DNA of 64,000 nucleotides from Candidatus Altimarinota bacterium (GTDB lineage Bacteria; Patescibacteriota; Gracilibacteria; UBA1369; GCA-2718715). Below, one piece after another: positions 7,037 to 61,807 of this stretch (its first letter is position 1; each line of letters starts with the position of its first letter). The translations under genes and the position numbers were made by a program. Location of the stretch: assembly GCA_041242255.1 (NCBI GenBank), contig JBESAV010000001.1, forward strand, positions 416,001 through 480,000, written 5' to 3'. The notes under the pieces are model-generated. The model did no database searches, was not told the DNA's origin, and saw only the letters and a program-made list of their open reading frames with translations.

Positions 7037-8350
7037 TTAAAAATCAATAGTTTCACCTTCCATAATATCCAAAATCACATCGTCAGCTCTCTCATACTTC
7101 AAAGTATAATCAATCAATGGTACATAGTAATAATCAACAGGCCCAGTCCCAACCCCAACAACATCGGTTTCAATAATAGTTTTATCAATAAACAACTCAA
7201 TCGTATCCATTCCAGCACCTTCAACTAAAATAGACTTTCGAACCTCATTCAGTCTTTCCTGAATAGTTGCAATTCCAGGTGAGTCAGAAGCTACAACCTG
7301 CCTAAACAAGGCTTCATAAACTTTCTCAAAGTCATATCTCTTTAAACTATCTCCATTAAATTCAACTTCACCAATAATAACTTTCCCATTCTCAACCCAG
7401 TAATGATATCTAATCATTCCTTCTCCAATATTCGACGCAATCAAAAACTTCCCATCTAACTTCGCTTCTTCATAAAATTCCCAACCAGACCCAAGTCCAG
7501 TTTTTACTTCACTAAGGTAATCATCTGCTCCAAGGTCTTCATTAATTCCGGACATATACATCAATGCCCTAGACTCATTTAACTCTCGATCTAGAAAATC
7601 AATTTTTAAACCTTCTTCCAGATCATTTCCAACCAAAACTCCATTTCCTCCAAAATCAAATGACTTCCATTCAACCGGCAAACTCAAACTAACTGCTGTT
7701 CTCCCAGAATGCTTTTTCCAATTATAAGTTATATCAAATTCACCGTTAGAAGGTAACGCTCTAACTCTATACATAAGCTCAGTAAATTCTGCCCTGCTCA
7801 TCAGTTTTCCTGGATTTAGACTTCCATCTACCTCTGAATCAAACAAGTTAACATCATACCCGTAACTAAACATATTCGAATACCATTGGCCTGCCCCAAT
7901 ATCCTCTCTGACATTTCTAAATTCTAAGCTAGTAGTATCAACACCCTTTGCTTCAAGCCCCATTTTCAAAGCTTCCACAAAGTTAACCTGATTCCCAGGT
8001 CTAAAGCTTCCATCACCATATCCTTGTACAATCCCTTTCTCAACTCCTACTGAAACATACTGCCCAAACCAATCGTCATCAGAAACATCATTGAAGATAA
8101 TTTCAGCTTGTTTAGAATTTTCCAATTGAAAGGCTATCAAAACAATCTTCAGTGCCTCAGCTCTATTAATCGGCTGATTTGGTTTGAAAGTTCCATCATC
8201 ATAACCCTGAATGATTCCTTCAGATGTAAACACATCAACAGCTTTAAAGTACTCAGACTCACGTTCTACATCCAGCAAATTTGCAGCCATACTAGCTTGA
8301 GTAGGAACTAAAATTATTCCAGCTAGTAAACTTAAAAGAACTTTTTTCAT
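7037..8350 (-). CDS. S-layer homology (SLH) domain protein
   Basis: Signal peptide; repeats GIIQGYDDGTFKPNQPINRAEA, GIVQGYGDGSFRPGNQVNF and a third ending MSRAEF. Confidence 0.88.
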   Translation of the reverse strand: MKKVLLSLLAGIILVPTQASMAANLLDVERESEYFKAVDVFTSEGIIQGYDDGTFKPNQPINRAEALKIVLIAFQLENSKQAEIIFNDVSDDDWFGQYVSVGVEKGIVQGYGDGSFRPGNQVNFVEALKMGLEAKGVDTTSLEFRNVREDIGAGQWYSNMFSYGYDVNLFDSEVDGSLNPGKLMSRAEFTELMYRVRALPSNGEFDITYNWKKHSGRTAVSLSLPVEWKSFDFGGNGVLVGNDLEEGLKIDFLDRELNESRALMYMSGINEDLGADDYLSEVKTGLGSGWEFYEEAKLDGKFLIASNIGEGMIRYHYWVENGKVIIGEVEFNGDSLKRYDFEKVYEALFRQVVASDSPGIATIQERLNEVRKSILVEGAGMDTIELFIDKTIIETDVVGVGTGPVDYYYVPLIDYTLKYERADDVILDIMEGETIDF

Positions 8351-8351
8351 T

Positions 8352-9611
8352 CTATTCTTGGTTAGATTGAATTTCTTGATTTAGTATATCATCAACAAGC
8401 TTCATAAACTCATTTTCCGGATAATATCCCAATATCACACCATATGAAGTATTTGGAGCTTGGTTTATAAAGAAAGCCGGAGCACCAATTACTCCTAAAG
8501 TATTTATATCATTTCTATGAGACTGAACTAGATCAGCAAATTCTTGATTATCAGCATCATAACAGTCGAAGAAATCAGTATAACCAACTCCAGCTCTAGG
8601 TACATAGCTATTCAGCAGACCTCTAAATCTATCAACAGACGAGTCAGATATATTACTATAATTATCTTTAAGCACTTCAAACATCGAATCAAATCTGTCT
8701 AAATCAGCTGCACATTCAAGTGCTTTTGCCACACTTACATCGGTTTCATTTCTAAAGAAATATTTATAATAGACAGCTGCATCTTCGTAAGCTTCGCTAA
8801 CTTTTATAAGCTCGTCTACAGAGTTAACAGACTGTTCTGAAGAAAGACTCAAGAAAGCTACAATCTCAATTTCACTTTCTGGGTTACCATATAGAAGTTT
8901 AGCATTATCAGTATTGATTTCATTTAAAGTTCTATATGGAAGTACTTGTAGTAAATATTCTTCATCAGATCTAGAAATAAACTTATCTTTTATCTCTTCA
9001 AAGTTTCCAAGCTTTTCAATCGTATCATTAAAAGCAAAAGTAGGTAGTAAGTTAACTCCAAGCTGCTCAGTTCGAGAAGCAAATTTCGGATCAGATATAT
9101 CGACCATTTCAATGTCAACTAGGGGAGTTACGGTCTTTTTAATCTGATTTAGATAAGGATCAATCTCACATTCAGGACGTTTACAACTTTGATCATAAAA
9201 AACCTGCACATCAACCAGCGGATGATTGTAAACTACGTAGGTCTTACCATTTTTTTCTAATATAGTTGGATCATTTGGGTTCTCTAAGCTTCTATTTTCT
9301 ACCTCCATCAAGCTTACCAAGAAATTAATATTTCTATTGAAAGTAGGATTCAACCTATATAAAAAGTAAAAACTAACTAAAATCAAAACAGTTAGCCCAA
9401 CCAAAACAACTGGTTGGATACCCTTTGCTCTAAATAGGCGCTTATTGTTAGCTCTACTTGGTTCATTAGCTTTTTTGGCTAATCCCAAAAGTTTAATCAG
9501 CTCTTCCTTTGATTGTTTTTCATTTGGCTCAATTCCTTCTTTTCTAAGCATTCGTATAATCTCTTTCTTCTTCATTCTCAATAGTCCTTTGTTCAAATTT
9601 TGACTATTCAT
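8352..9611 (-). CDS. membrane-anchored DsbA/thioredoxin-fold protein
   Basis: TM helix; CKRPEC; GNPESEIEIVAF; ALECA; LGVIGAPAFFIN cis-Pro loop. Confidence 0.7.
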   Translation of the reverse strand: MNSQNLNKGLLRMKKKEIIRMLRKEGIEPNEKQSKEELIKLLGLAKKANEPSRANNKRLFRAKGIQPVVLVGLTVLILVSFYFLYRLNPTFNRNINFLVSLMEVENRSLENPNDPTILEKNGKTYVVYNHPLVDVQVFYDQSCKRPECEIDPYLNQIKKTVTPLVDIEMVDISDPKFASRTEQLGVNLLPTFAFNDTIEKLGNFEEIKDKFISRSDEEYLLQVLPYRTLNEINTDNAKLLYGNPESEIEIVAFLSLSSEQSVNSVDELIKVSEAYEDAAVYYKYFFRNETDVSVAKALECAADLDRFDSMFEVLKDNYSNISDSSVDRFRGLLNSYVPRAGVGYTDFFDCYDADNQEFADLVQSHRNDINTLGVIGAPAFFINQAPNTSYGVILGYYPENEFMKLVDDILNQEIQSNQE

Positions 9612-36940: not shown

Positions 36941-37809
36941 AATAATACATTGAAGTAACTTGTTGTATTAGCATAATGTCCAGTATATTCATAAGAATTA
37001 GTATAACCAATAATCTCTGGATCTTTTTTCATCAAGCGAGCAAGCTCAACTCCAATCAAAAGTGAAGGAGGGGAGTCTACATTATCAATTTTCAAATCTT
37101 CAACATCCATCGACATAATAGCCTCACGAGTCTCCTGATCATAAACACCCGCCTGATTTACAGTCCTGTAATGATTAAAATCAACACTGATCACAAACTT
37201 TGCTTCATCATAATATTTAGTCAGAAATTTTGCCAACTCACGACTTTCCTTGTTCCCAGCTGAAGAGGACACAGATATAGGAACTATCCTAGCTTCAGGA
37301 TTTGTCATTTTTATATAATCAGCTTGCACTCCAATAGAGTGTTCTTTTTCAAAACAACCAGGCTCCATATTCACAAACCCACTTTCAACCAATTCTTCAA
37401 CAATACTCGGCTCACTCTCTAACAATCCAAAATTAGTTTTATAATCATGGTCTCCAGTGCTGAAAACATCCTCACATTTTTCCGGATGGTCAGGTCCAAT
37501 TACAATAAAAAGATCATCTTCATCACTCAAAAATTGCTCATAAAACTCACCAACAAAATCAGCTGCCACAGGCAAATGATGCGAGGTTATACCAATTCTA
37601 CTTGTTGATTCTTCTATGCTTTCTGGCCTACTAAAACTTCTCTCTATAGCCAGCTTATATTTAGAGTTATTACTATCTATCACTAGGTTTCCAACTTCAA
37701 TACTTTGAAGTGAACTTTCCTGAAAAGGGGAGTCCACTCCAGCGTAGCCCTGGCATCCAGCCAAGGCTACTAAACTAAGAATTAAGATACTAGGTTTATA
37801 GGTTTTCAT
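36934..37809 (-). CDS. MEMO1/AmmeMemoRadiSam protein B-fold lipoprotein
   Basis: Lipobox LAGC; SHH, IGPDH, EHSIGVQ and SVDFNHY motifs. ATG overlaps the A2M stop (TAATG). Confidence 0.82.
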   Translation of the reverse strand: MKTYKPSILILSLVALAGCQGYAGVDSPFQESSLQSIEVGNLVIDSNNSKYKLAIERSFSRPESIEESTSRIGITSHHLPVAADFVGEFYEQFLSDEDDLFIVIGPDHPEKCEDVFSTGDHDYKTNFGLLESEPSIVEELVESGFVNMEPGCFEKEHSIGVQADYIKMTNPEARIVPISVSSSAGNKESRELAKFLTKYYDEAKFVISVDFNHYRTVNQAGVYDQETREAIMSMDVEDLKIDNVDSPPSLLIGVELARLMKKDPEIIGYTNSYEYTGHYANTTSYFNVLFQ

Positions 37810-40800
37810 TATCTGATAGTTATATTTCCATCTTCTCCTCTAGCCACATTATCAGCATCATACTCTTTGATTTGGGCACCTTGCACTTTAAATTCTCCAT
37901 CAGATACAACTCTAGCAAAGTAACTTATCTCACCATCATTACAGTTGTTATAACGCTCTAAAGAGTAACTAGATCGACTGAAAGTAATCACATTCCCAAC
38001 ACTCTTACCTCCATACCAATTATAACTACATGTCTCACTATTAAATTGATACCTAGTCACATTATTTATCACTGGTCTTAATCCAGAAGGTAAATAATCA
38101 ATAATCTGGTAATTCTTATATTCATCTTCATTGTAAATAGAGTCTTCAATATCTATCACAACTCGAACCAAGTCACCACTTTCAAACTGACTCGTTTCTA
38201 CTCCATCCACAAGATACCTCTTACTTATACTTAGATTTTGACTATTCCCAGCTAGGTCACCACTTTCTCTATAGCTAGCTACAAGCATTACCTCTCCATC
38301 AATACTTTCAACTTCCAGAGCCTCAGCTTGAGCTTTAGTTATCTTCTCATATCTCGAGAATCCATCACTCAAGTCAAACTCCATAACCTCATCTCCAATC
38401 CTTAAACTAACCAAAGACTCAACCAACTCAACATTTGATATAACTTTTTCCATTGCCATCACACCAGCAATACCATACACAGAACCATCACTTTCAAATA
38501 CTTCCAAAGCCTCTCCATCTACAGGCAAACCAATTCTAGCTCTCAAAAGATTATTTAACTGAGTAAACTGACCCTCTACTAAGTCACTCGAGATAGAGTT
38601 GTTATACATCGCTCTAGCACCTTCTTTATCTCCCATCTTCTCAAGCCCAAGCGCTACATATATTTCACCAAGTTTAGTATTCTCAGAGCTTCTAGCTACT
38701 TCTTTAAGTTCAGCCAAAACATTTTCTCCCAAACTTGCTAATCCATATAAGGCAATAGAGGTTCTCTCAATGTCTGCAGTCTTGTTAACCATCTGCTCTC
38801 TTAGATAACTAGAAGTCTTAGCTTTCAAAATATCATCCCCAAGAATATCAGAGACTAAAGCTGTTAATTCCAGGTCAGCATCACCATAAGTAAACAACGC
38901 CAATCCATTATTATCAGGCACATAGTAATCATTCAGATTCAAATCAATTTTTTCAGGTTCATTATTCCCAAACTGTTCACTCATCAAATCAACAATGTAG
39001 TTTCTTGTTACAATCTGATCCAACCTATTATTCACAACATAAAGTCCAGATCTCAACTCAGGTAAAAATTTACCTTTCCCAACTGTAGCTAATTCTAGAT
39101 CAACCATTCCCTCAGCAGGAACCTCTAGTCCAACTGCTCCAGTACTATCAATCAACACATCCTCAAATGCTAATCTTTGACCATATGATTCAATCACCTC
39201 AAAAGGCAATACCAATGTGTCAGCATTATCTCCCTGTCTTACAGTCAACTTAGCTTCGTGTATCCCAAGTTGAAGTTCTTCGATCTGGAAACCATAAGAA
39301 GTTTCACTACTAGTAACCTCTTCCAAAATCCCTAGCGATTCAATTTCCAAAACATAATCAATCTCATCTCCAATCACCAAGTCCTCCCCATAAGCTCTGA
39401 TCTCCATAACTGGTTTATCCTCTAGCAGGTAAGTGTCATTAATACTCGTTGCAGCAAACACAGGCAAGCTAACAGGCACTTTTATGTTATCTTGCCCAGC
39501 CAAAATTCTTTCATTTTCAAATGCCTTTGCTGAGATCCTCCATGAAGTTAAGTTATCAGGAAGATCAAAGAAAGCAGTTGCACTACCACCAGCATTTGTT
39601 TCGAAAGTATCAAACAAGCTTACATCTTTAAACTCAGATCTTTCAGCTCCACCTTTCTCAGCATTATGTACATAAATCCCATCCGCAAAGTATGTATGGG
39701 TTTTATCTACATTCAAGTTATACACTCTAGTTGCAGGCTTATTTACATATTCAATTTTTTCAATCCTAACAATCTCTCCATTTTCTCCAATCAATTCATC
39801 TCCAACCTCAGCCATCCCAGCCAATCTCCATTTTCCATTTAAGAAGATTTCATGTTCACCTGTTACTTCCAGCTCATCATTAATAATCATGTAACCATCT
39901 ACCAAATAGCTATGAACACCTTGCACAGTTACAATCTTCTTATTACCAGAATTTTCATTAGCGAAGCTCAAGACTTGGTCTCCAACTCGAACCTCCTCAA
40001 TCGGTTTACTTTCACCATTCGACATTAATACCATTGTCCCAGGTAAGAAACATCCTCCTTGCTCAGCACCAGCATCCATATTAGCCGCTTCAAGGCGTTC
40101 ATTTTTATTTGCCCCACTTTGCGGACTATCAATATTATCAATGTACAAAGTACTTAATATATCTTTCTCATACTCATAAGGTAAAACATGGAATAATGCC
40201 TCATCCACAGAAGCCAGGTTAACTTCAGCCTTTACCGGATCACCATTCACATCAGTTACTTCCATCTCAATCTCAACTCTTTCTCCAGGTCTATATCTAT
40301 CCTTGTCTGTTTGCATGTTTATGGAAAGCTCACTTTGCAATTCATCATACGAAGCAATCACTCTATTTGTATCCTCAAATCCAGTCTCAGTCAAAACAAC
40401 AGCCTGGTAAGCAAACCCAGGAATAAACTCTTCTTTAAATACTTTCGATACATTCTCCGAAGGAGTAACCTCAAAATCATCTATTGCAGTCTGGTACCCA
40501 TAGTATAAGTACTCCTCAGATTGTAGAGTCTTCTCTTCTGGAACATCCAATTCAAGCTCAAACTCTTCGCCTATTTTCAATTCAGGCTCCTGAGATCTAC
40601 TATTCAAGCTCAAAGTGATCCTTGAATCATCATAGAAACCAAAAGATCTATATCCTATATAGTTTTTAGTTTCAAAATTCACACCTCTGTCATCAGTCGA
40701 ACTTAAGATCACATAGTAAGAAGTATATAGATCTTTCTGTTGTTCAGTTGGCTCAAAGGTAAACTCAAATTCACCCTCACCATTTGTAACACCTTGCTTA

Positions 40801-43181
40801 GAGGTTAAAAAGTTTTCTCTGAACTCATACCTATATTGTTGCTGAGAAGTTTTCGAAACAGGATCATAGTAAAACCCATCTTCTATTTTTTCATAATAAG
40901 TTCCATAAATAGTTGCAGTCACACCTTTTCCAGTATCTGGATCACCGATGAACTCACTTCTGTAATAACCCCTCGAATCAGAGGTGGCATTTGCTAGGTT
41001 AACTTCATTAAGTTTTGCAGTGAGATTATATAAATCATCATCACTAGAAACATCATTTATTAATTGCATATAAACATCTTCCTCAAACACCAAAACTTCA
41101 GTCTGTGCACTTATCTCTCCTTGTTCAGGACTACCAGTTCTAAGGTAAATATTTCTAGAGTTTGGTCCATAACTAAATTCATCATCAGATCTATATGCAG
41201 TCGCACTGATAACTCCTTGTCCGTTCTCATCTAACTGCAGAGTGCTTTCTGAATTGTTGTAGTAATTTTGAGAAATATAATCACTGTACTGAACTTCTAG
41301 ATTTGGCACAGGTGTTCCATCAAAGAACTTAGCCTCAACCTCAATATCAACTGTTTCACCAGCAAACATGGAGTCTCGACTAGGAGTAGCAATCAACTGG
41401 TAAGCCGGCGTCTCAAAATCAACAATCTGCAAGCTCGAAGTAGAAATCACTTCATCATCTTTCTCTACTTGTAGTGTGTAGTAACCCGGTTCAATACCCT
41501 CAAAACTCAAAGATCCTTTAATCGTATCAAAGCTACTCACAACCGCCGTAGAAGAGGCAAGTTTATTATCATCCCAGTAACCATAGTAGTAGTAACTTCC
41601 ACCAGTCAAACTAACAGTTACTTTATCATTTTTTAGATCATCCTCTCGACCTTTAACCACTCCCCAAAAGTTTATCTCATCCGTAGGCCTATAAACATAA
41701 CGATCACTACTCAAGAAATTCCAATATCTATCAGCTTTAGGATAATAAAAACCATACCAGTTTGAATCTTCCATCATACTCAAATATGTTTCACCATTCC
41801 ATTCAACCATAAACGAACTAGGCCTATTATCTCCCATACCTTCAGATCTTTCTTTAAGGTAATCAGGCGCATTGTAATTCAATAATCCTTTCTCATTAGT
41901 TCGACCAAGGTCAGTAGTCTCACCACCTCCGATCAAACTAACATCAGCTCCATCCAAGAAAGATCCATTCTCAAAATCATACAACCATAATAACCCCGTT
42001 TCACTTGTATAAGTGTAGTAGTGGGCTAGGGGAGAAACCTGGAACCAAACAATCGACCTATCTCCATTATTACTATTTTCAATCTCAATTGCATATGTCC
42101 CAGTTTCCAGCTCATCTGCTAGATAAAGCACTCTTGAGTAATTTTGCTCAACAATCTCCGGCGAAACCTCATATAGTTTTGTAGCTTTCTCCAAACTCAA
42201 CTCATCATCAAAACTATTTTTATAAATTGAAGTCCAGTACCAGTTCCAATTCTTACTCTGACCATACTCTTCCATAAAGTCCTCAGTCGATTCGTATCTA
42301 TAAATACTTGTCGTATAATCTTCGTTAAATCCTTCTGTATCTAGCTCAGTATAACCAATACTAAAGAACTTATCTCCTCCTGGGAAAAAGCTTTCGTAAT
42401 CACTCCAGAAATTGATACCTCTTTCATTATAAGCCTCTGAAGATGTTTCAAATGTAAACACAAAGTCCTCTCCAAAGCTAGAATCTCTCTCATCAAACAA
42501 AGCTTGATCAACCGTCACAGTGTAAACTGTACCTTCTTGCATCCCAGCATGCACCAAAACTAGTTTCTCATCTTCTACTCGCACATCATAGTCCAAACTA
42601 GGCTCCACACTCACAAAACTAGCATCACCTTCAGTAACATCTTCGTTAAATTCAATCTCTATCGAAGAATCAATTGGCACATACGTCCCTCTGTTTCTTG
42701 GTAAACTAGATATCACCTGAAAGTCAGCTTCCACAGCAAAAGCCCAAGAATAATCTCTATTAGACTCTATGTTTGCCACCAAAAGCTCACCTTTAGGCAG
42801 CTCAACACTCGGAGTTAGAGTATATGAGTAGGTAGCATTACTATTTAGCTCTGCCCCCTGTGCTTTAGCTTGAGGAATCATACTCAGTATTCCACCTTGC
42901 TTCTCAACTTTAAACTCAATTTCAGGCTCAAAACTCACCAACTCTCTCACATCACTCTCAGATAATTCAACCTTACTATCCAGTGTGAAAGAAGATCCAG
43001 CTTTAGTCACAAAGTCTTCAAAAGTATCATTAGCTCTCAAGCTAAACAAAGTTTCTTCATCACTTTTATCAAAGTCATTAATCCCACTATCAAAAAGCAA
43101 ATCTCTGTACATAAAACCAACACCCACCAAAAGAATCACCAATAGGGAAGTCACTATTGGTAGAATAAATTTCTTATTCAT
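37809..43181 (-). CDS. bacterial alpha-2-macroglobulin family protein with Ig-like (Big_5) domain and internal Hint domain
   Basis: N-terminal TM; Big_5-like FQVISSLP..IEIEFNEDV; MG motifs SDRYVYRPTD, FFDGTP, TDKDRYRPGE, VNLASVDEALF; post-bait RSEF..LPDNLTSWRI; C-terminal IIDYLPSGL..YFARVV. Confidence 0.9.
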   Translation of the reverse strand: MNKKFILPIVTSLLVILLVGVGFMYRDLLFDSGINDFDKSDEETLFSLRANDTFEDFVTKAGSSFTLDSKVELSESDVRELVSFEPEIEFKVEKQGGILSMIPQAKAQGAELNSNATYSYTLTPSVELPKGELLVANIESNRDYSWAFAVEADFQVISSLPRNRGTYVPIDSSIEIEFNEDVTEGDASFVSVEPSLDYDVRVEDEKLVLVHAGMQEGTVYTVTVDQALFDERDSSFGEDFVFTFETSSEAYNERGINFWSDYESFFPGGDKFFSIGYTELDTEGFNEDYTTSIYRYESTEDFMEEYGQSKNWNWYWTSIYKNSFDDELSLEKATKLYEVSPEIVEQNYSRVLYLADELETGTYAIEIENSNNGDRSIVWFQVSPLAHYYTYTSETGLLWLYDFENGSFLDGADVSLIGGGETTDLGRTNEKGLLNYNAPDYLKERSEGMGDNRPSSFMVEWNGETYLSMMEDSNWYGFYYPKADRYWNFLSSDRYVYRPTDEINFWGVVKGREDDLKNDKVTVSLTGGSYYYYGYWDDNKLASSTAVVSSFDTIKGSLSFEGIEPGYYTLQVEKDDEVISTSSLQIVDFETPAYQLIATPSRDSMFAGETVDIEVEAKFFDGTPVPNLEVQYSDYISQNYYNNSESTLQLDENGQGVISATAYRSDDEFSYGPNSRNIYLRTGSPEQGEISAQTEVLVFEEDVYMQLINDVSSDDDLYNLTAKLNEVNLANATSDSRGYYRSEFIGDPDTGKGVTATIYGTYYEKIEDGFYYDPVSKTSQQQYRYEFRENFLTSKQGVTNGEGEFEFTFEPTEQQKDLYTSYYVILSSTDDRGVNFETKNYIGYRSFGFYDDSRITLSLNSRSQEPELKIGEEFELELDVPEEKTLQSEEYLYYGYQTAIDDFEVTPSENVSKVFKEEFIPGFAYQAVVLTETGFEDTNRVIASYDELQSELSINMQTDKDRYRPGERVEIEMEVTDVNGDPVKAEVNLASVDEALFHVLPYEYEKDILSTLYIDNIDSPQSGANKNERLEAANMDAGAEQGGCFLPGTMVLMSNGESKPIEEVRVGDQVLSFANENSGNKKIVTVQGVHSYLVDGYMIINDELEVTGEHEIFLNGKWRLAGMAEVGDELIGENGEIVRIEKIEYVNKPATRVYNLNVDKTHTYFADGIYVHNAEKGGAERSEFKDVSLFDTFETNAGGSATAFFDLPDNLTSWRISAKAFENERILAGQDNIKVPVSLPVFAATSINDTYLLEDKPVMEIRAYGEDLVIGDEIDYVLEIESLGILEEVTSSETSYGFQIEELQLGIHEAKLTVRQGDNADTLVLPFEVIESYGQRLAFEDVLIDSTGAVGLEVPAEGMVDLELATVGKGKFLPELRSGLYVVNNRLDQIVTRNYIVDLMSEQFGNNEPEKIDLNLNDYYVPDNNGLALFTYGDADLELTALVSDILGDDILKAKTSSYLREQMVNKTADIERTSIALYGLASLGENVLAELKEVARSSENTKLGEIYVALGLEKMGDKEGARAMYNNSISSDLVEGQFTQLNNLLRARIGLPVDGEALEVFESDGSVYGIAGVMAMEKVISNVELVESLVSLRIGDEVMEFDLSDGFSRYEKITKAQAEALEVESIDGEVMLVASYRESGDLAGNSQNLSISKRYLVDGVETSQFESGDLVRVVIDIEDSIYNEDEYKNYQIIDYLPSGLRPVINNVTRYQFNSETCSYNWYGGKSVGNVITFSRSSYSLERYNNCNDGEISYFARVVSDGEFKVQGAQIKEYDADNVARGEDGNITIR
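39663..40052 (-). other. Hint / bacterial intein-like (BIL) domain, aa 1044-1173 of the A2M
   Basis: CFLPGTMV (block A), VTGEHEIF (block B TxxH), VYNLNV..HTYFADGIYVHN (blocks F/G). The +1 residue is Ala, and there is no endonuclease domain. Confidence 0.93.
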
Positions 43182-43241: not shown

Positions 43242-44639
43242 CTAGACCAAAGTCCCTTCTAGTAACCAATCAGTCGACTTGTCCACATAAACATCAACCA
43301 TTTGTCCAATCAAACTTTCATCACCATCAAATGCAACTTCCTTGTAGTGTTCAGTCCTCCCTTGATACTTTCCAACTCTTTCATTGTATCTTTCCACCAA
43401 AACCTTCACCGTTTTTCCTTCAAACACATCATGTCTTGCTCTAGCACTTTTTCTTAGCACTTCATTCATACTGTGCCACCTTCTTTTCTTTTCCTCTCTA
43501 GAAACAGTATCTTCCATCAACATTTCTGCCGGTGTTCCTTTCCTAGGTGAAAACTGACTGATGAAAGCTAGATCAAATCCAATCTCCTCAAAAAACTCAC
43601 AACTTTCCTTAAACATCTCTTCTGTCTCACCACAAAAACCAACAATCATATCAGTTGATATAGAGCAATCAGGCATATATTTTCGAATAGTTTTCACAAT
43701 CTCCCTAAACTTCTCAGTATCATAATTACGATTCATTTTCTTCAGCATAGCATTCGAACCAGACTGCAAAGGCAAGTGAATATATGGCATCAAGGTTCTT
43801 CCGTCAGCAATGGTTTTAACAACTTCTTCAGTGATATCCTGCGGGTGCGGTGAAGTAAATCTAAGTCTCTCAAGCCCTTCAATCGTATCCAATTTCTTCA
43901 AAAGTTGCACAAAAGGATTCTCATGATACTCAAACAAACCACTTTTCTTATCTTCCCAGCTCATACCAAAACTATTCACGTTTTGCCCAAGCAAAGTAAT
44001 CTCTAAGCAACCATTCTCCACAAGCTCAAGCGCCTCTTTATAAACAGACTCAATCGGACGGCTCTTTTCACGCCCACGAGAGTAGGGAACTATACAATAA
44101 GTACAAAACTTATCACACCCAGACATGATTGGAATATACGCCTGAAAGTCATTTATATATTTAGGCTGAATCTTAAAGTAATTCTCAAGATCAGCTTCTT
44201 TCTGCTCTAATTCAGAAAACTTAGGATCAACTTCAGTCAGCAATTCACCAAGCTTAGGCAGATCAGCAATCGGAAAAACTATATCCAAACAGTCCACTCT
44301 ATTCAGCAATGGATCTTTCTCTTTTGATTTCCTAGTAGATGCAGTTCTAGTCATGCAACCAGTTATCCCAACCAATAATTTATCATTCTTCCTCTTCAAC
44401 TTCTTCATATGTTTCATCATCCCAAGCACCTTATCTTCAGCCTTCTGTTTGATAGAACAAGTATTGAATATAATGAAATCAGCCTCAGCCTCCTCTTCAG
44501 TTGGCTTATAACCATAACTTTCAAGCAATCCACTCAATCTTTCTGAATCAGAATGATTCATCTGACATCCATGAGTTCGGACCAAATACTTTAACTCTTT
44601 TTCTTCTACAAAGTTCATATCAAACTTTAAATCAATCAA
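43242..44639 (-). CDS. miaB: tRNA-2-methylthio-N6-dimethylallyladenosine synthase MiaB
   Basis: GCQMNHSDSE, NTCSI, GCM, GCDKFCTYCIVPYSRG, LLGQNVNS and a TRAM domain. Confidence 0.95.
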   Translation of the reverse strand: MIDLKFDMNFVEEKELKYLVRTHGCQMNHSDSERLSGLLESYGYKPTEEEAEADFIIFNTCSIKQKAEDKVLGMMKHMKKLKRKNDKLLVGITGCMTRTASTRKSKEKDPLLNRVDCLDIVFPIADLPKLGELLTEVDPKFSELEQKEADLENYFKIQPKYINDFQAYIPIMSGCDKFCTYCIVPYSRGREKSRPIESVYKEALELVENGCLEITLLGQNVNSFGMSWEDKKSGLFEYHENPFVQLLKKLDTIEGLERLRFTSPHPQDITEEVVKTIADGRTLMPYIHLPLQSGSNAMLKKMNRNYDTEKFREIVKTIRKYMPDCSISTDMIVGFCGETEEMFKESCEFFEEIGFDLAFISQFSPRKGTPAEMLMEDTVSREEKKRRWHSMNEVLRKSARARHDVFEGKTVKVLVERYNERVGKYQGRTEHYKEVAFDGDESLIGQMVDVYVDKSTDWLLEGTLV

Positions 44640-44752
44640 ATTATATAAATTTATCCAAAAAACTCAACCAATCCCAACCCCATCTACAAGCTATTCTGTA
44701 ATCCCAAAACCTAATCTACAAAACAAACATACAAATAATGCAAATACATTAC

Positions 44753-44781
44753 TTGTACACTTATTAAAAATTTGGTATAGT
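44753..44781 (+). promoter_or_regulatory. sigma70 promoter TTGTAC-17-TATAGT with extended -10 TG
   Basis: ttgtac acttattaaaaatttgg tatagt. Confidence 0.7.
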
Positions 44782-44786
44782 TATAC

Positions 44787-45250
44787 GAAGTCCAAAGAAA
44801 AAGGCTTCACAAAAGAAGTGAGAACAGACGTAGTTGACTCAAACGGTGCGCACCCAGAGTAATAAACTCACAGATCATTTACAGACAGAGACACAGCCAA
44901 AGAGTAGAGACTGAAATCTATACTCAATCAAAACTTTTAGTTTCCCTCTTTTGCTTTGTGATTGGATAAGAACTAACCATTCTTACCCGATATAAACCCT
45001 TTGCTTGGTAGACTATTTTTTAGCCTTGTGCCTTGTCACACTATCAAATCTTCTACACAAAAACAAGCGGTCCGGTGGTAAGACTTGAAACTAACCGAAG
45101 CACAGCAAAAGATAAACTGGATAGATGGTTACTATCAATCGGAAAGCCTTCCTAGACCGAAAGTTCCCGGTGATTGACGTAATTTTTAATCACTATCAAG
45201 GGAACAGTCTAAGAAAGCCTGCCGAGGAAGACCCTTAGGGGTCTTTTTTT
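44787..45250 (+). ncRNA. putative large structured non-coding RNA of about 460 nt, family not recognised
   Basis: No long ORF; bounded by a promoter and a terminator; many nested helices and complementary hairpin loops (see findings). Confidence 0.7.
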
Positions 45251-45251
45251 T
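45228..45251 (+). terminator. intrinsic terminator
   Basis: aagaccc-ttag-gggtctt followed by a T-run. Confidence 0.85.
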
Positions 45252-45333
45252 ATGTTCTATGCTCAAAAATAAACTTACACTCTTTGCAAAAAGCGCAATT
45301 TGTGTTATCATTCTTTAATGATAATAAAAGTTT

Positions 45334-45504
45334 ATGGCCCTACTATTCACGGAGTCTAGAAAGCTATTCATAATTTTCACAACCGTTTTACTGCTTGTTT
45401 TCTCTGTATCTACACTTTTCCTCTGGGATAACCACGAAATGGGGGACATAGCCGACCACGGAAAAGCCAGCTCCCTCCACGCCCCAAGCGTAGTTCCATA
45501 TTAA
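45334..45504 (+). CDS. 56-aa single-TM small protein, not in the ORF track
   Basis: MALLFTESRKLFIIFTTVLLLVFSVSTLFLWDNHEMGDIADHGKASSLHAPSVVPY*. Preceded by TTGCAA-16-(TGn)TATCAT at 45284-45311. Confidence 0.6.
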   Translation: MALLFTESRKLFIIFTTVLLLVFSVSTLFLWDNHEMGDIADHGKASSLHAPSVVPY

Positions 45505-45512
45505 AATATTTC

Positions 45513-45540
45513 AAAAAAAACCAACCTTTTACAGTTGGTT
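45513..45540 (-). terminator. intrinsic terminator of 45560..45883
   Basis: Minus strand aaccaact-gtaaaa-ggttggtt followed by a T-run. Confidence 0.8.
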
Positions 45541-45559
45541 AGCATTCAAAACAAAGATT

Positions 45560-45883
45560 CTATCCACCTCCTTCTAGGAATCTTTCCCTAGTGTTTTCAT
45601 AGGTCTTAATAGCTAGATTGTACCGAGCATCGTGGTCATAACCCTCTTCGTTTTTTGTAGAAAGGTCCTCATACAATTCATCTCGAGATATACCACGGTC
45701 ATCCTGGTAGCCTCTAATTAAAAACTCTGGAAACCAAAAACAAGTTTCATTTTCCTTTTTTTCAGCTAGAGGTACATTTTTCCCATCTTCAAAACGTTTA
45801 ATGACATGAAAAATTTGAATTAGTCTCTCTTCTCTAATTGGATTAGAGATTTTAGGGAAAACATCAAAGCTTTTCAGCTCCAT
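45560..45883 (-). CDS. hypothetical protein (cassette A)
   Basis: 107 aa; SD AAGGAG; own promoter and terminator. Confidence 0.75.
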   Translation of the reverse strand: MELKSFDVFPKISNPIREERLIQIFHVIKRFEDGKNVPLAEKKENETCFWFPEFLIRGYQDDRGISRDELYEDLSTKNEEGYDHDARYNLAIKTYENTRERFLEGGG

Positions 45884-46044: not shown

Positions 46045-46374
46045 TCAGTAAGATAAGTCTTCCATTAAACGTTGCCTAAAACCTTCTAAATCATCATCTT
46101 CATGCCAGAACATTGAAAATTCACAGTTTTCAATCTTCAAGAAATAAAACCCAGTTGCATCATCAAATTGAATTTCTGACAAAGCTTCTGAATTATTCAT
46201 CGCATTAAAGTTTTCAGTACTTATCCATTTGTAATAAGGCATAAACTTATAGCAACACCCACTGTCAATCAGTATAGGACTAAACCTTTCACTATAGTCA
46301 ACTAAAATTTCAATTATCCTTTTAGCCTTTTTCAGTTCAAGTCCATATCTTTGTCTACTCGTAAAGTGCAGCAT
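46045..46374 (-). CDS. hypothetical protein (cassette B)
   Basis: 109 aa; SD AGGAGGT; own promoter and terminator. Confidence 0.75.
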   Translation of the reverse strand: MLHFTSRQRYGLELKKAKRIIEILVDYSERFSPILIDSGCCYKFMPYYKWISTENFNAMNNSEALSEIQFDDATGFYFLKIENCEFSMFWHEDDDLEGFRQRLMEDLSY

Positions 46375-61732: not shown

Positions 61733-61807
61733 GCCGGGGTAGCTCAGTGGTAGAGCAGAGGCCTGAAAAGCCTTGTGTCGGTGGTTCAATTCCGCCCCTC
61801 GGCACCA
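61733..61807 (+). tRNA. tRNA-Phe (GAA), CCA encoded
   Basis: GCCGGGG..TAGCTCAGTGGTAGAGCA, anticodon arm GAGGC-CTGAAAA-GCCTT, T arm GGTTCAATTCC, ends CCTCGGCACCA. Confidence 0.97.

Follow-up and report, generated by a model that had tools for sequence, protein, structure and literature searches.

The window analysed here is a stretch of 64,000 nucleotides (nt) from the genome of a Candidatus Altimarinota bacterium (contig JBESAV010000001.1, positions 416,001 to 480,000). At 44787-45251 on its plus strand lies what is very probably a separate transcription unit encoding a structured non-coding RNA of approximately 465 nt, the representative of a new trans-acting family outside Rfam. The gene is conserved, vertically inherited and independently delimited, and the complex fold that it specifies is absent from Rfam. 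Such an RNA would act in trans through its fold, and not as a cis regulator or a messenger. A first-pass annotation, made from the sequence letters, had already suggested a large structured non-coding RNA at this site, possibly of a new class, and that suggestion is upheld, as no Rfam match was found and homologues exist and covary strongly.

Covarying core and flanking helices

The RNA has a conserved core of approximately 200 nt, in which a long-range helix, P2, opens into a junction that holds a hairpin (H1), an arm made of two helices (P3 and P3b) and a pseudoknot (P4/P5). A further hairpin, H2, lies just outside P2, and the core is flanked by the hairpin P1 at the 5' side and by a 3' stem domain that ends in, or itself acts as, the terminator. 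The two strands of P2 (44947-44965 and 45095-45112) are interrupted by a tandem G.A / A.A internal loop, which is invariant in the sequences inspected by eye. Their long-range covariation is apparent on a plain MAFFT alignment of 64 sequences that was not fitted to the structure: 87.9% of the cells are paired, versus 75.3% in shuffles and 37-44% with slid partners, and eight of the ten pairs are changed on both sides. The first-pass annotation had drawn a longer version of this helix, the core of which (44947-55 with 45104-12) stands; its outer tagttt/aaactg part clashes with the covarying P1, and its gtg/cac register is shifted with respect to the one found by comparison.

Within the junction, H1 occupies 44967-44985, and the arm is formed by P3 (45003-07 with 45064-68) and P3b (45008-12 with 45052-56), in which 99.0% and 93.2% of the cells, respectively, are paired in the structure-fitted alignment of 64 distinct sequences, with all ten pairs changed on both sides. 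The apical part of the arm (45013-51) is variable, and the arm also has a conserved A-rich 3' internal loop. P4 (45069-72 with 45082-85) is paired in 98.4% of cells, and three of its four pairs show compensatory changes. Because the 5' strand of P5 (45077-79 with 45094-96) lies between the two strands of P4, the two helices are interleaved as an H-type pseudoknot with an A-rich third loop, and the strand that leads from P4 to the 3' strand of P5 is A-rich throughout. The third pair of P5 is canonical in 51 of the 64 sequences (U-A in 25, C-G in 17, A-U in 8, G-C in 1) and non-canonical in 13. In some homologues the pseudoknot is enlarged by an extra hairpin, about 20-58 nt in length, that separates the P4 and P5 5' strands; an expansion hairpin measuring about 20 nt occurs in loci L004/L023 (genome G003), L007/L024 (G006), L006/L029 (G007), L008/L022 (G009), L028 and L030, and the pseudoknot insertion of G003 is a 58-nt segment. 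Outside P2, H2 (45120-45136) is paired in 82.1% of cells, with compensatory changes in five of its five pairs.

Taken over P3, P3b, P4, the first two pairs of P5 and H2, 93.5% of the cells are paired, compared with 66.3% in shuffles, and sliding the partners of the same helices (P3, P3b, P4, P5 and H2) lowers pairing to 23.6-43.1%. Compensatory changes, with both sides altered, occur in 18 of the 21 modelled pairs. Within the family, RNAalifold applied to 10 sequences predicts 64 pairs, 32 of which have compensatory changes. These include P1 (44907-15 with 44936-44), with nine pairs, five of them compensatory. The 3' domain (45141-45222) is a long irregular stem enclosing a hairpin, for which 28 pairs are predicted, the majority with compensatory changes among family members, and in six of the ten aligned family sequences this stem and its U run are the terminator itself. 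No consensus structure was found among the same ten sequences in the 5' leader (44787-44906), which varies in length; it forms a local hairpin in this genome and has a short conserved A-rich stretch just before P1.

Several helices that the first-pass annotation had picked out by eye are recovered in this comparison. H1 (taagaa/ttctta), H2 (gatag/ctatc), the ttgcttg-gtaga/tctac-caagcgg helix, which corresponds to P3/P3b (45003-12 with 45052-68), and the long 3' hairpin are all kept with compensatory changes. Others do not survive: gagta/tactc (44902-25) clashes with the covarying P1, a proposed closing helix between the 5' and 3' parts (44801-07 with 45144-50) is incompatible with the conserved stem of the 3' domain, and a helix at 44819-41 falls in the leader region just described. 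The two T-loop-like UGAAA loops are likewise unsupported, one of them being the A-rich strand of the pseudoknot and not a hairpin loop. P1 and the P4/P5 pseudoknot, on the other hand, go beyond what had been seen before.

The same alignments bear on a coding alternative, in which the region would specify at least one small protein and its structure would be incidental. ORFs (open reading frames) of 30-41 aa do overlap the region, but none of them was seen to be kept among homologues, indels with lengths not divisible by three are spread through the alignments, and substitutions track base-pair partners and not codon positions. The hairpins of 20-58 nt inserted within the core of some members also speak against coding, and we regard this explanation as having next to no probability.

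Loop-loop pairing between H1 and H2

Sequence comparison shows the loops of H1 (44973-79, the 5' partner) and H2 (45125-31, the 3' partner) to be complementary in a manner that predicts a kissing loop of 5-8 Watson-Crick pairs. In this genome, UAACCA in the H1 loop (44974-79) faces UGGUUA in the H2 loop (45126-31), a pairing that had been predicted in the first-pass annotation; it covaries, and here it can be extended to seven Watson-Crick pairs. Complementarity is kept through about ten sequence variants. Written with the H1 loop first, these include UUACCA with UGGUAA, UAACUA with UAGUUA, UAAACCAA with UUGGUUUA (one base more on each side), UGACCA(A) with (U)UGGUCA, UGACUA with UAGUCA, (A)GACGA with UCGUC(U), GACCG with CGGUC, GAACG with CGUUC, and GAACC with GGUUC.

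MAFFT placed the H1 loop in different columns in different groups, and the kissing loop was scored per sequence, with permutation controls. Among the 61 sequences with a model-aligned H2 loop, the Watson-Crick run between the loops is at least five in 43, at least six in 28 and at least seven in 9. With one representative for each of 37 distinct H2 loops, the cognate mean is 5.14 versus 4.14 +/- 0.14 for permuted partners, and none of 20000 permutations reached the observed match. In 34 of the 43 sequences with a run of at least five, the 5' partner falls within the loop of a hairpin whose stem has four or more contiguous closing pairs, and 32 distinct stems are represented. In family f19 (L033, L035 and L041), the model misplaces H2, and by eye the loop of a downstream hairpin pairs with the H1 loop.

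The kissing loop would either clamp H1 and H2 alongside P2 within one molecule or bridge two molecules. An intramolecular clamp is geometrically plausible, because H1 and H2 lie on either side of P2 and a stack of H1, the kissing duplex and H2 would, by our estimate, be about as long as P2. As for a bridge, contacts in ROOL and GOLLD RNAs that were first read as tertiary proved to be intermolecular in cryo-EM, according to a published report (PMC12286853), and an assembly reading of the present loops thus has a precedent in covarying "tertiary" loops. In addition, two genomes (G192 and G263) each have two copies of the RNA with different loop pairs, GAACG/CGUUC in one and GAACC/GGUUC in the other; the two genomes belong to one family, so that the difference counts as a single event. 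If assembly does take place, paralogues with differing loop pairs would be expected from selection that either prevents assemblies from mixing or makes them combine in a defined way.

Gene signals, genomic setting and distribution

The RNA gene lies on the plus strand in a gap of 920 bp between two minus-strand genes. The upstream border is a gene for a MiaB-like radical-SAM methylthiotransferase (43242-44639), and the downstream border is a gene for a 107-aa protein without a Pfam match (45560-45883). As the first-pass annotation had stated, a putative promoter and a terminator enclose the stretch. The promoter-like site is of the sigma-70 type (44753/44754-44781) and combines a TGTACA -35-like box, a 16-nt spacer and an extended -10 element, TG-n-TATAGT, with 9 of 12 consensus matches; from this consensus scan, the RNA would start near 44787. 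Boxes of the TTGAC type together with TATACT or TGGTACTAT occur at an equivalent distance in distant homologues. The intrinsic terminator (45224-45249/45251) is a GC-rich hairpin followed by eight T. Two further claims also hold: no ORF longer than 41 aa is present on either strand within 44785-45251, and G makes up 19.1% of the RNA, compared with 12.9% of the plus strand of the whole window and 4.8-14.3% of adjacent stretches.

The plus strand of the RNA folds at -115.6 kcal/mol, with z = -3.35 relative to dinucleotide shuffles, and the reverse strand also folds well (z = -4.79); therefore, folding energy does not decide the strand of the RNA. The plus strand is assigned because the T tail is present on that strand only and because conserved positions often have G.U pairs, which would read as A.C mismatches on the complementary strand. 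In the 64-sequence set, GU occurs in 32 sequences at pair 138-240, and UG occurs in 28 and 26 sequences at two of the pairs of P2.

The host genome is a single contig of 1,000,477 bp, with 36% G+C and a completeness of 98.5%. Homologues were sought with BLAST and with three covariance models, R1 (146 positions), R2 (rebuilt on 30 sequences) and R3 (from a 75-row alignment, A7, with 64 distinct sequences). The models, of 136-146 positions, span P3 to H2 only; P2, H1 and the kissing loop were assessed separately from them. The searches used stricter Infernal filters and a partial model, so that "not found" does not mean absent. BLAST found the RNA in seven of nine genomes of the same family and in none of 51 genomes from other families of the order, and R1 found it in all nine genomes of the family and in 35 of 151 genomes of the order. 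With R2 there were 33 positive genomes among 151 of the class and no positives among 143 that represent other classes of the phylum. R3, at E up to 0.01, raised the count in the class to 42 of 151, among which are 11 of 13 genomes of family f28, six of seven of f43 and seven of 15 of f26; no match was obtained in 14 genomes of f29, 12 of f34 or 10 of f40. An exact-pattern scan of one genome per species, covering 185,579 species, gave 18 matches, with titles naming Peribacteria (7), Peregrinibacteria (4), Gracilibacteria (2) and Patescibacteria group (3) or carrying no label (2). As far as searched, the RNA family is confined to part of the class Gracilibacteria of the Patescibacteria, or candidate phyla radiation (CPR). 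The homologue search that the first-pass annotation had proposed, including covariation of the UAACCA/UGGUUA pair, thus returned both homologues and compensatory changes.

The genomic surroundings fall into two synteny groups. In nine loci of family f1 the upstream gene is MiaB-like. In the second group, 12 loci from other families have a CofE-like gene upstream, and in 10 an MscS-like gene lies downstream. Between the groups the neighbours of the RNA are different, most of them lying on the strand opposite to it, and no partner gene common to both groups was found, recurrence being limited to each group. Second copies adjoin genes for CarA, a DinG-like helicase, peptide deformylase (Def), an M23 peptidase and Lgt; LeuRS and PurN were among the other neighbours examined.

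This setting bears on whether the RNA could act in cis, as a leader or riboswitch whose terminator governs expression of a gene downstream. The RNA does end in an intrinsic terminator, and in two genomes (G005 and G008) a plus-strand gene starts about 60 nt past it, but that gene has its own extended -10 box. Elsewhere, the downstream gene varies by group (LeuRS, the MscS-like channel and others) and is mostly on the opposite strand; in the window itself, both genes that come next (45560-45883 and 46045-46374) run in the opposite direction, which leaves a 56-aa ORF (45334-45504) as the only plus-strand frame after the RNA. Furthermore, the terminator is constitutive by sequence, and at about 465 nt the RNA is far larger than known leaders. 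Control in cis is accordingly extremely unlikely.

An origin in a mobile element, a prophage or a defense system, as for HEARO or omega RNA, retron RNA and phage-borne ROOL or GOLLD, might be suspected from the copy number, since 15 of the 42 genomes positive with R3 have two or three copies, and from the patchy occurrence among the families of the class. In one genome (G260; locus L107, contig C35), two copies (2184-2773 and 7862-8447) are separated by 5.7 kb and share 91% identity across 592 nt, the RNA gene alone being duplicated. However, no Rfam match to RNAs of the HEARO/omega, retron, ROOL or GOLLD type was found, and the neighbours examined are ordinary genes, among which no transposase, integrase, reverse transcriptase, nuclease partner or phage gene was seen; seven ORFs between and around the G260 copies have no Pfam match. 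Synteny is also kept within families (nine and 12 loci), which argues for vertical descent, and a mobile or defense-related origin is very improbable.

Some other features of these loci are recorded here for completeness. The 56-aa ORF at 45334-45504 has a hydrophobic stretch and no Pfam match and lies between the terminator of the RNA and a minus-strand terminator at 45519-45540. Between the RNA gene and leuS, the adjacent minus-strand genes at 45560-45883 and 46045-46374 encode proteins of 107 and 109 aa without a Pfam match. On the other side, the minus-strand gene at 37809-43181 encodes a 1790-aa protein with A2M_BRD, MG2, A2M and bMG10 domains, of the alpha-2-macroglobulin type, and a Big_5 domain, and a Hint/intein-like PT-HINT module is inserted in the middle of this protein at residues 1058-1174. 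In genome G101, about 400 nt downstream of its copy of the RNA (L031, 899-965, minus strand), there is a match to Hammerhead_3 with 36.5 bits and E = 1.1e-4, below the gathering score of 48.5, which may be a real type III hammerhead or a chance match.

Evidence for expression comes from two metatranscriptome runs of one study, the only RNA runs found to contain any part of the stretch. Each yielded a single contig of 196 nt, which matches 44948-45143 in one run and 44950-45145 in the other with full identity, at depths of 2.6 and 4. No contig came from the remaining approximately 3.5 kb of the 3.7-kb stretch; both runs are small shares of the study, and missing flank contigs are not evidence that the adjacent genes are silent. 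The contigs hint at an abundant or stable core RNA. The metatranscriptome check proposed in the first-pass annotation has thus given two contigs on the core, from a single study and at low depth, and tests transcription only weakly.

Comparison with catalogued RNAs

The RNA was compared with the covariance models of Rfam 15 (4227 families), with membership defined as a score at or above the gathering threshold. No match was found on the RNA at this level, the whole window giving only tRNA-Phe at 61733-61804, and a scan of 44600-45600 under permissive settings (E up to 10) returned nothing meaningful; its best match, Atu_C8, reaches 20.5 bits against a cut-off of 50 and sits on the terminator hairpin. 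Rfam also gave no match on 20 distant homologue loci, and in seven distant loci scanned at E up to 1 the RNA core had no consistent match. The covariance-model check that the first-pass annotation had called for therefore found no catalogued family, either at gathering score or consistently at permissive E.

An alternative is that the RNA is a highly divergent housekeeping RNA, namely RNase P RNA, transfer-messenger RNA (tmRNA), the 4.5S RNA of the signal recognition particle (SRP) or 6S RNA, which standard models have missed. Its size, its own promoter and terminator, its vertical inheritance and its strongly conserved junction nucleotides would fit, and the slots for 6S and SRP RNA look empty in this 98.5%-complete single-contig genome. 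However, RNase P RNA (RF00010, bacterial type A) is encoded at 837117-837483 of the genome, with 188.9 bits, and tmRNA (RF00023) at 210147-210569, with 102.8 bits, both at different loci. No tmRNA was found in the window by ARAGORN or in 44600-45600 by the permissive Rfam scan, and the statement in the first-pass annotation that tmRNA, RNase P and SRP signatures are absent is correct in that none has a match in the region. 6S RNA (RF00013) has no match in the genome or in 44600-45600. 6S RNA is rod-like, a hairpin of approximately 180 nt whose large central bubble imitates an open promoter, whereas the consensus fold described here branches and includes both a pseudoknot and a kissing loop; the RNA is also present in up to three copies per genome.

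As for SRP RNA (RF00169 and RF01854), no match was found anywhere in the genome, including the RNA region. PF02978 and PF00448 give only weak P-loop matches in the genome, the best candidate for Ffh or FtsY (SRP_SPB and SRP54-type GTPase domains) being a Mur ligase, and six-frame motif scans of the genome found no GTPase of the SRP type. An SRP RNA would thus lack a partner, because Ffh and FtsY were not found. The same holds more widely: PF00448 has no true match in 41 sampled genomes of the order, 61 of the class or 81 of the phylum, with 14 of 14 controls matching, and neither Ffh nor FtsY has a true match in the 81 genomes sampled across the phylum. The loss of SRP in CPR bacteria has already been published, at least in part; one report describes two SRP subunits as absent in Vampirococcus and many other CPR bacteria (PMC8080830). 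The notion of the RNA as a stand-in for the missing SRP RNA was dropped. No link between the two is drawn, because SRP loss extends far beyond the range of the RNA, which was found within one class only. Overall, a divergent housekeeping RNA is very unlikely.

This leaves a new family of trans-acting structured RNA as the preferred reading, and several points weigh against it. The 64-sequence alignment was fitted to the model structure and thus leans towards it, and since the sequences are related, the shuffle controls overstate significance. The kissing-loop run is below five in 18 of 61 sequences, and in one subgroup, family f26 (L065, L072, L081, L083 and L085), the 5' kissing partner was not identified at any of the five loci. 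Both ends of the RNA are provisional, having been placed by consensus scans. The distribution is patchy, and the RNA either is not universal in the class or has diverged too far to be detected. The expression evidence is thin, as the contigs show neither strand nor ends and DNA carry-over is possible. Finally, the functional part of the reading is inferential.

With regard to function, the RNA would most likely be the core of a ribonucleoprotein or a self-associating architectural RNA. Among modes of action, a ribonucleoprotein core or protein-binding scaffold is the one we favor, at somewhat less than an even chance. Self-association or association between paralogues through the loop pair is doubtful, catalysis by the RNA is rather unlikely, and the remaining weight falls to something else. 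A more specific proposal, which we put forward tentatively and consider unlikely as it stands, is that of an RNA machine of a hitherto unrecognised class, specific to Gracilibacteria. It would be either the core of a lineage-specific ribonucleoprotein or ribozyme that these genomes of about 1 Mb have kept, or else self-assembling, alone or with its paralogues, through the covarying H1 and H2 loops. An RNA of about 465 nt is unlikely to be idle, because it is conserved, sometimes in two or three copies, in CPR genomes of about 1 Mb that have shed many functions. The compact core, with its well-defined pseudoknot and a kissing loop for which many compensatory variants are available, is a ready target for structural and biochemical study, and the alignments and models would permit curation of the family and annotation of Gracilibacteria genomes.

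Large and intricate bacterial RNAs are rare, the examples being RNase P RNA, tmRNA, group I and II introns, OLE, ROOL, GOLLD and raiA, and each known class has taught new RNA biology or new structural principles. No published description of the RNA was found in the literature on CPR and Gracilibacteria non-coding RNAs; supplementary motif lists lie outside that search and may bear on novelty. Compared with the housekeeping RNAs (RNase P, SRP, tmRNA and 6S), the present RNA similarly has its own promoter and terminator, conserved synteny and near-invariant nucleotides at the junctions and the pseudoknot, but its range covers only part of a single class, and genomes often contain two or three copies of it. 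The P4/P5 module may resemble the frameshift pseudoknots of luteoviruses, which are of the H type, with two short interleaved stems and an A-rich strand placed so as to follow the first stem; P4/P5 differs in being one module within the junction of a large non-coding RNA.

The closest parallels are ROOL, GOLLD and OLE, with which the first-pass annotation had also compared the RNA. The comparison holds for size, complexity and orphan status, since all are several hundred nt long, with many helices, long-range pairings found by covariation, covarying loop-loop contacts and an undefined biochemical role; it does not extend to homology or genomic setting. The RNA described here has no match to any Rfam model, is smaller, with a core of about 200 nt in a total of about 465 nt, and lies in Gracilibacteria beside ordinary chromosomal genes, not in a prophage or in an operon with a partner protein. 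The raiA motif RNA is likewise free-standing, conserved and multi-helix, and its function is reported as unknown (PMC12968392); the present RNA differs from it in having no Rfam match, in belonging to another lineage and in having a fold with a pseudoknot and a kissing loop. Overall, the RNA is a new family within a known kind, the large structured bacterial RNAs of unknown function, with a distinct fold, lineage and setting.

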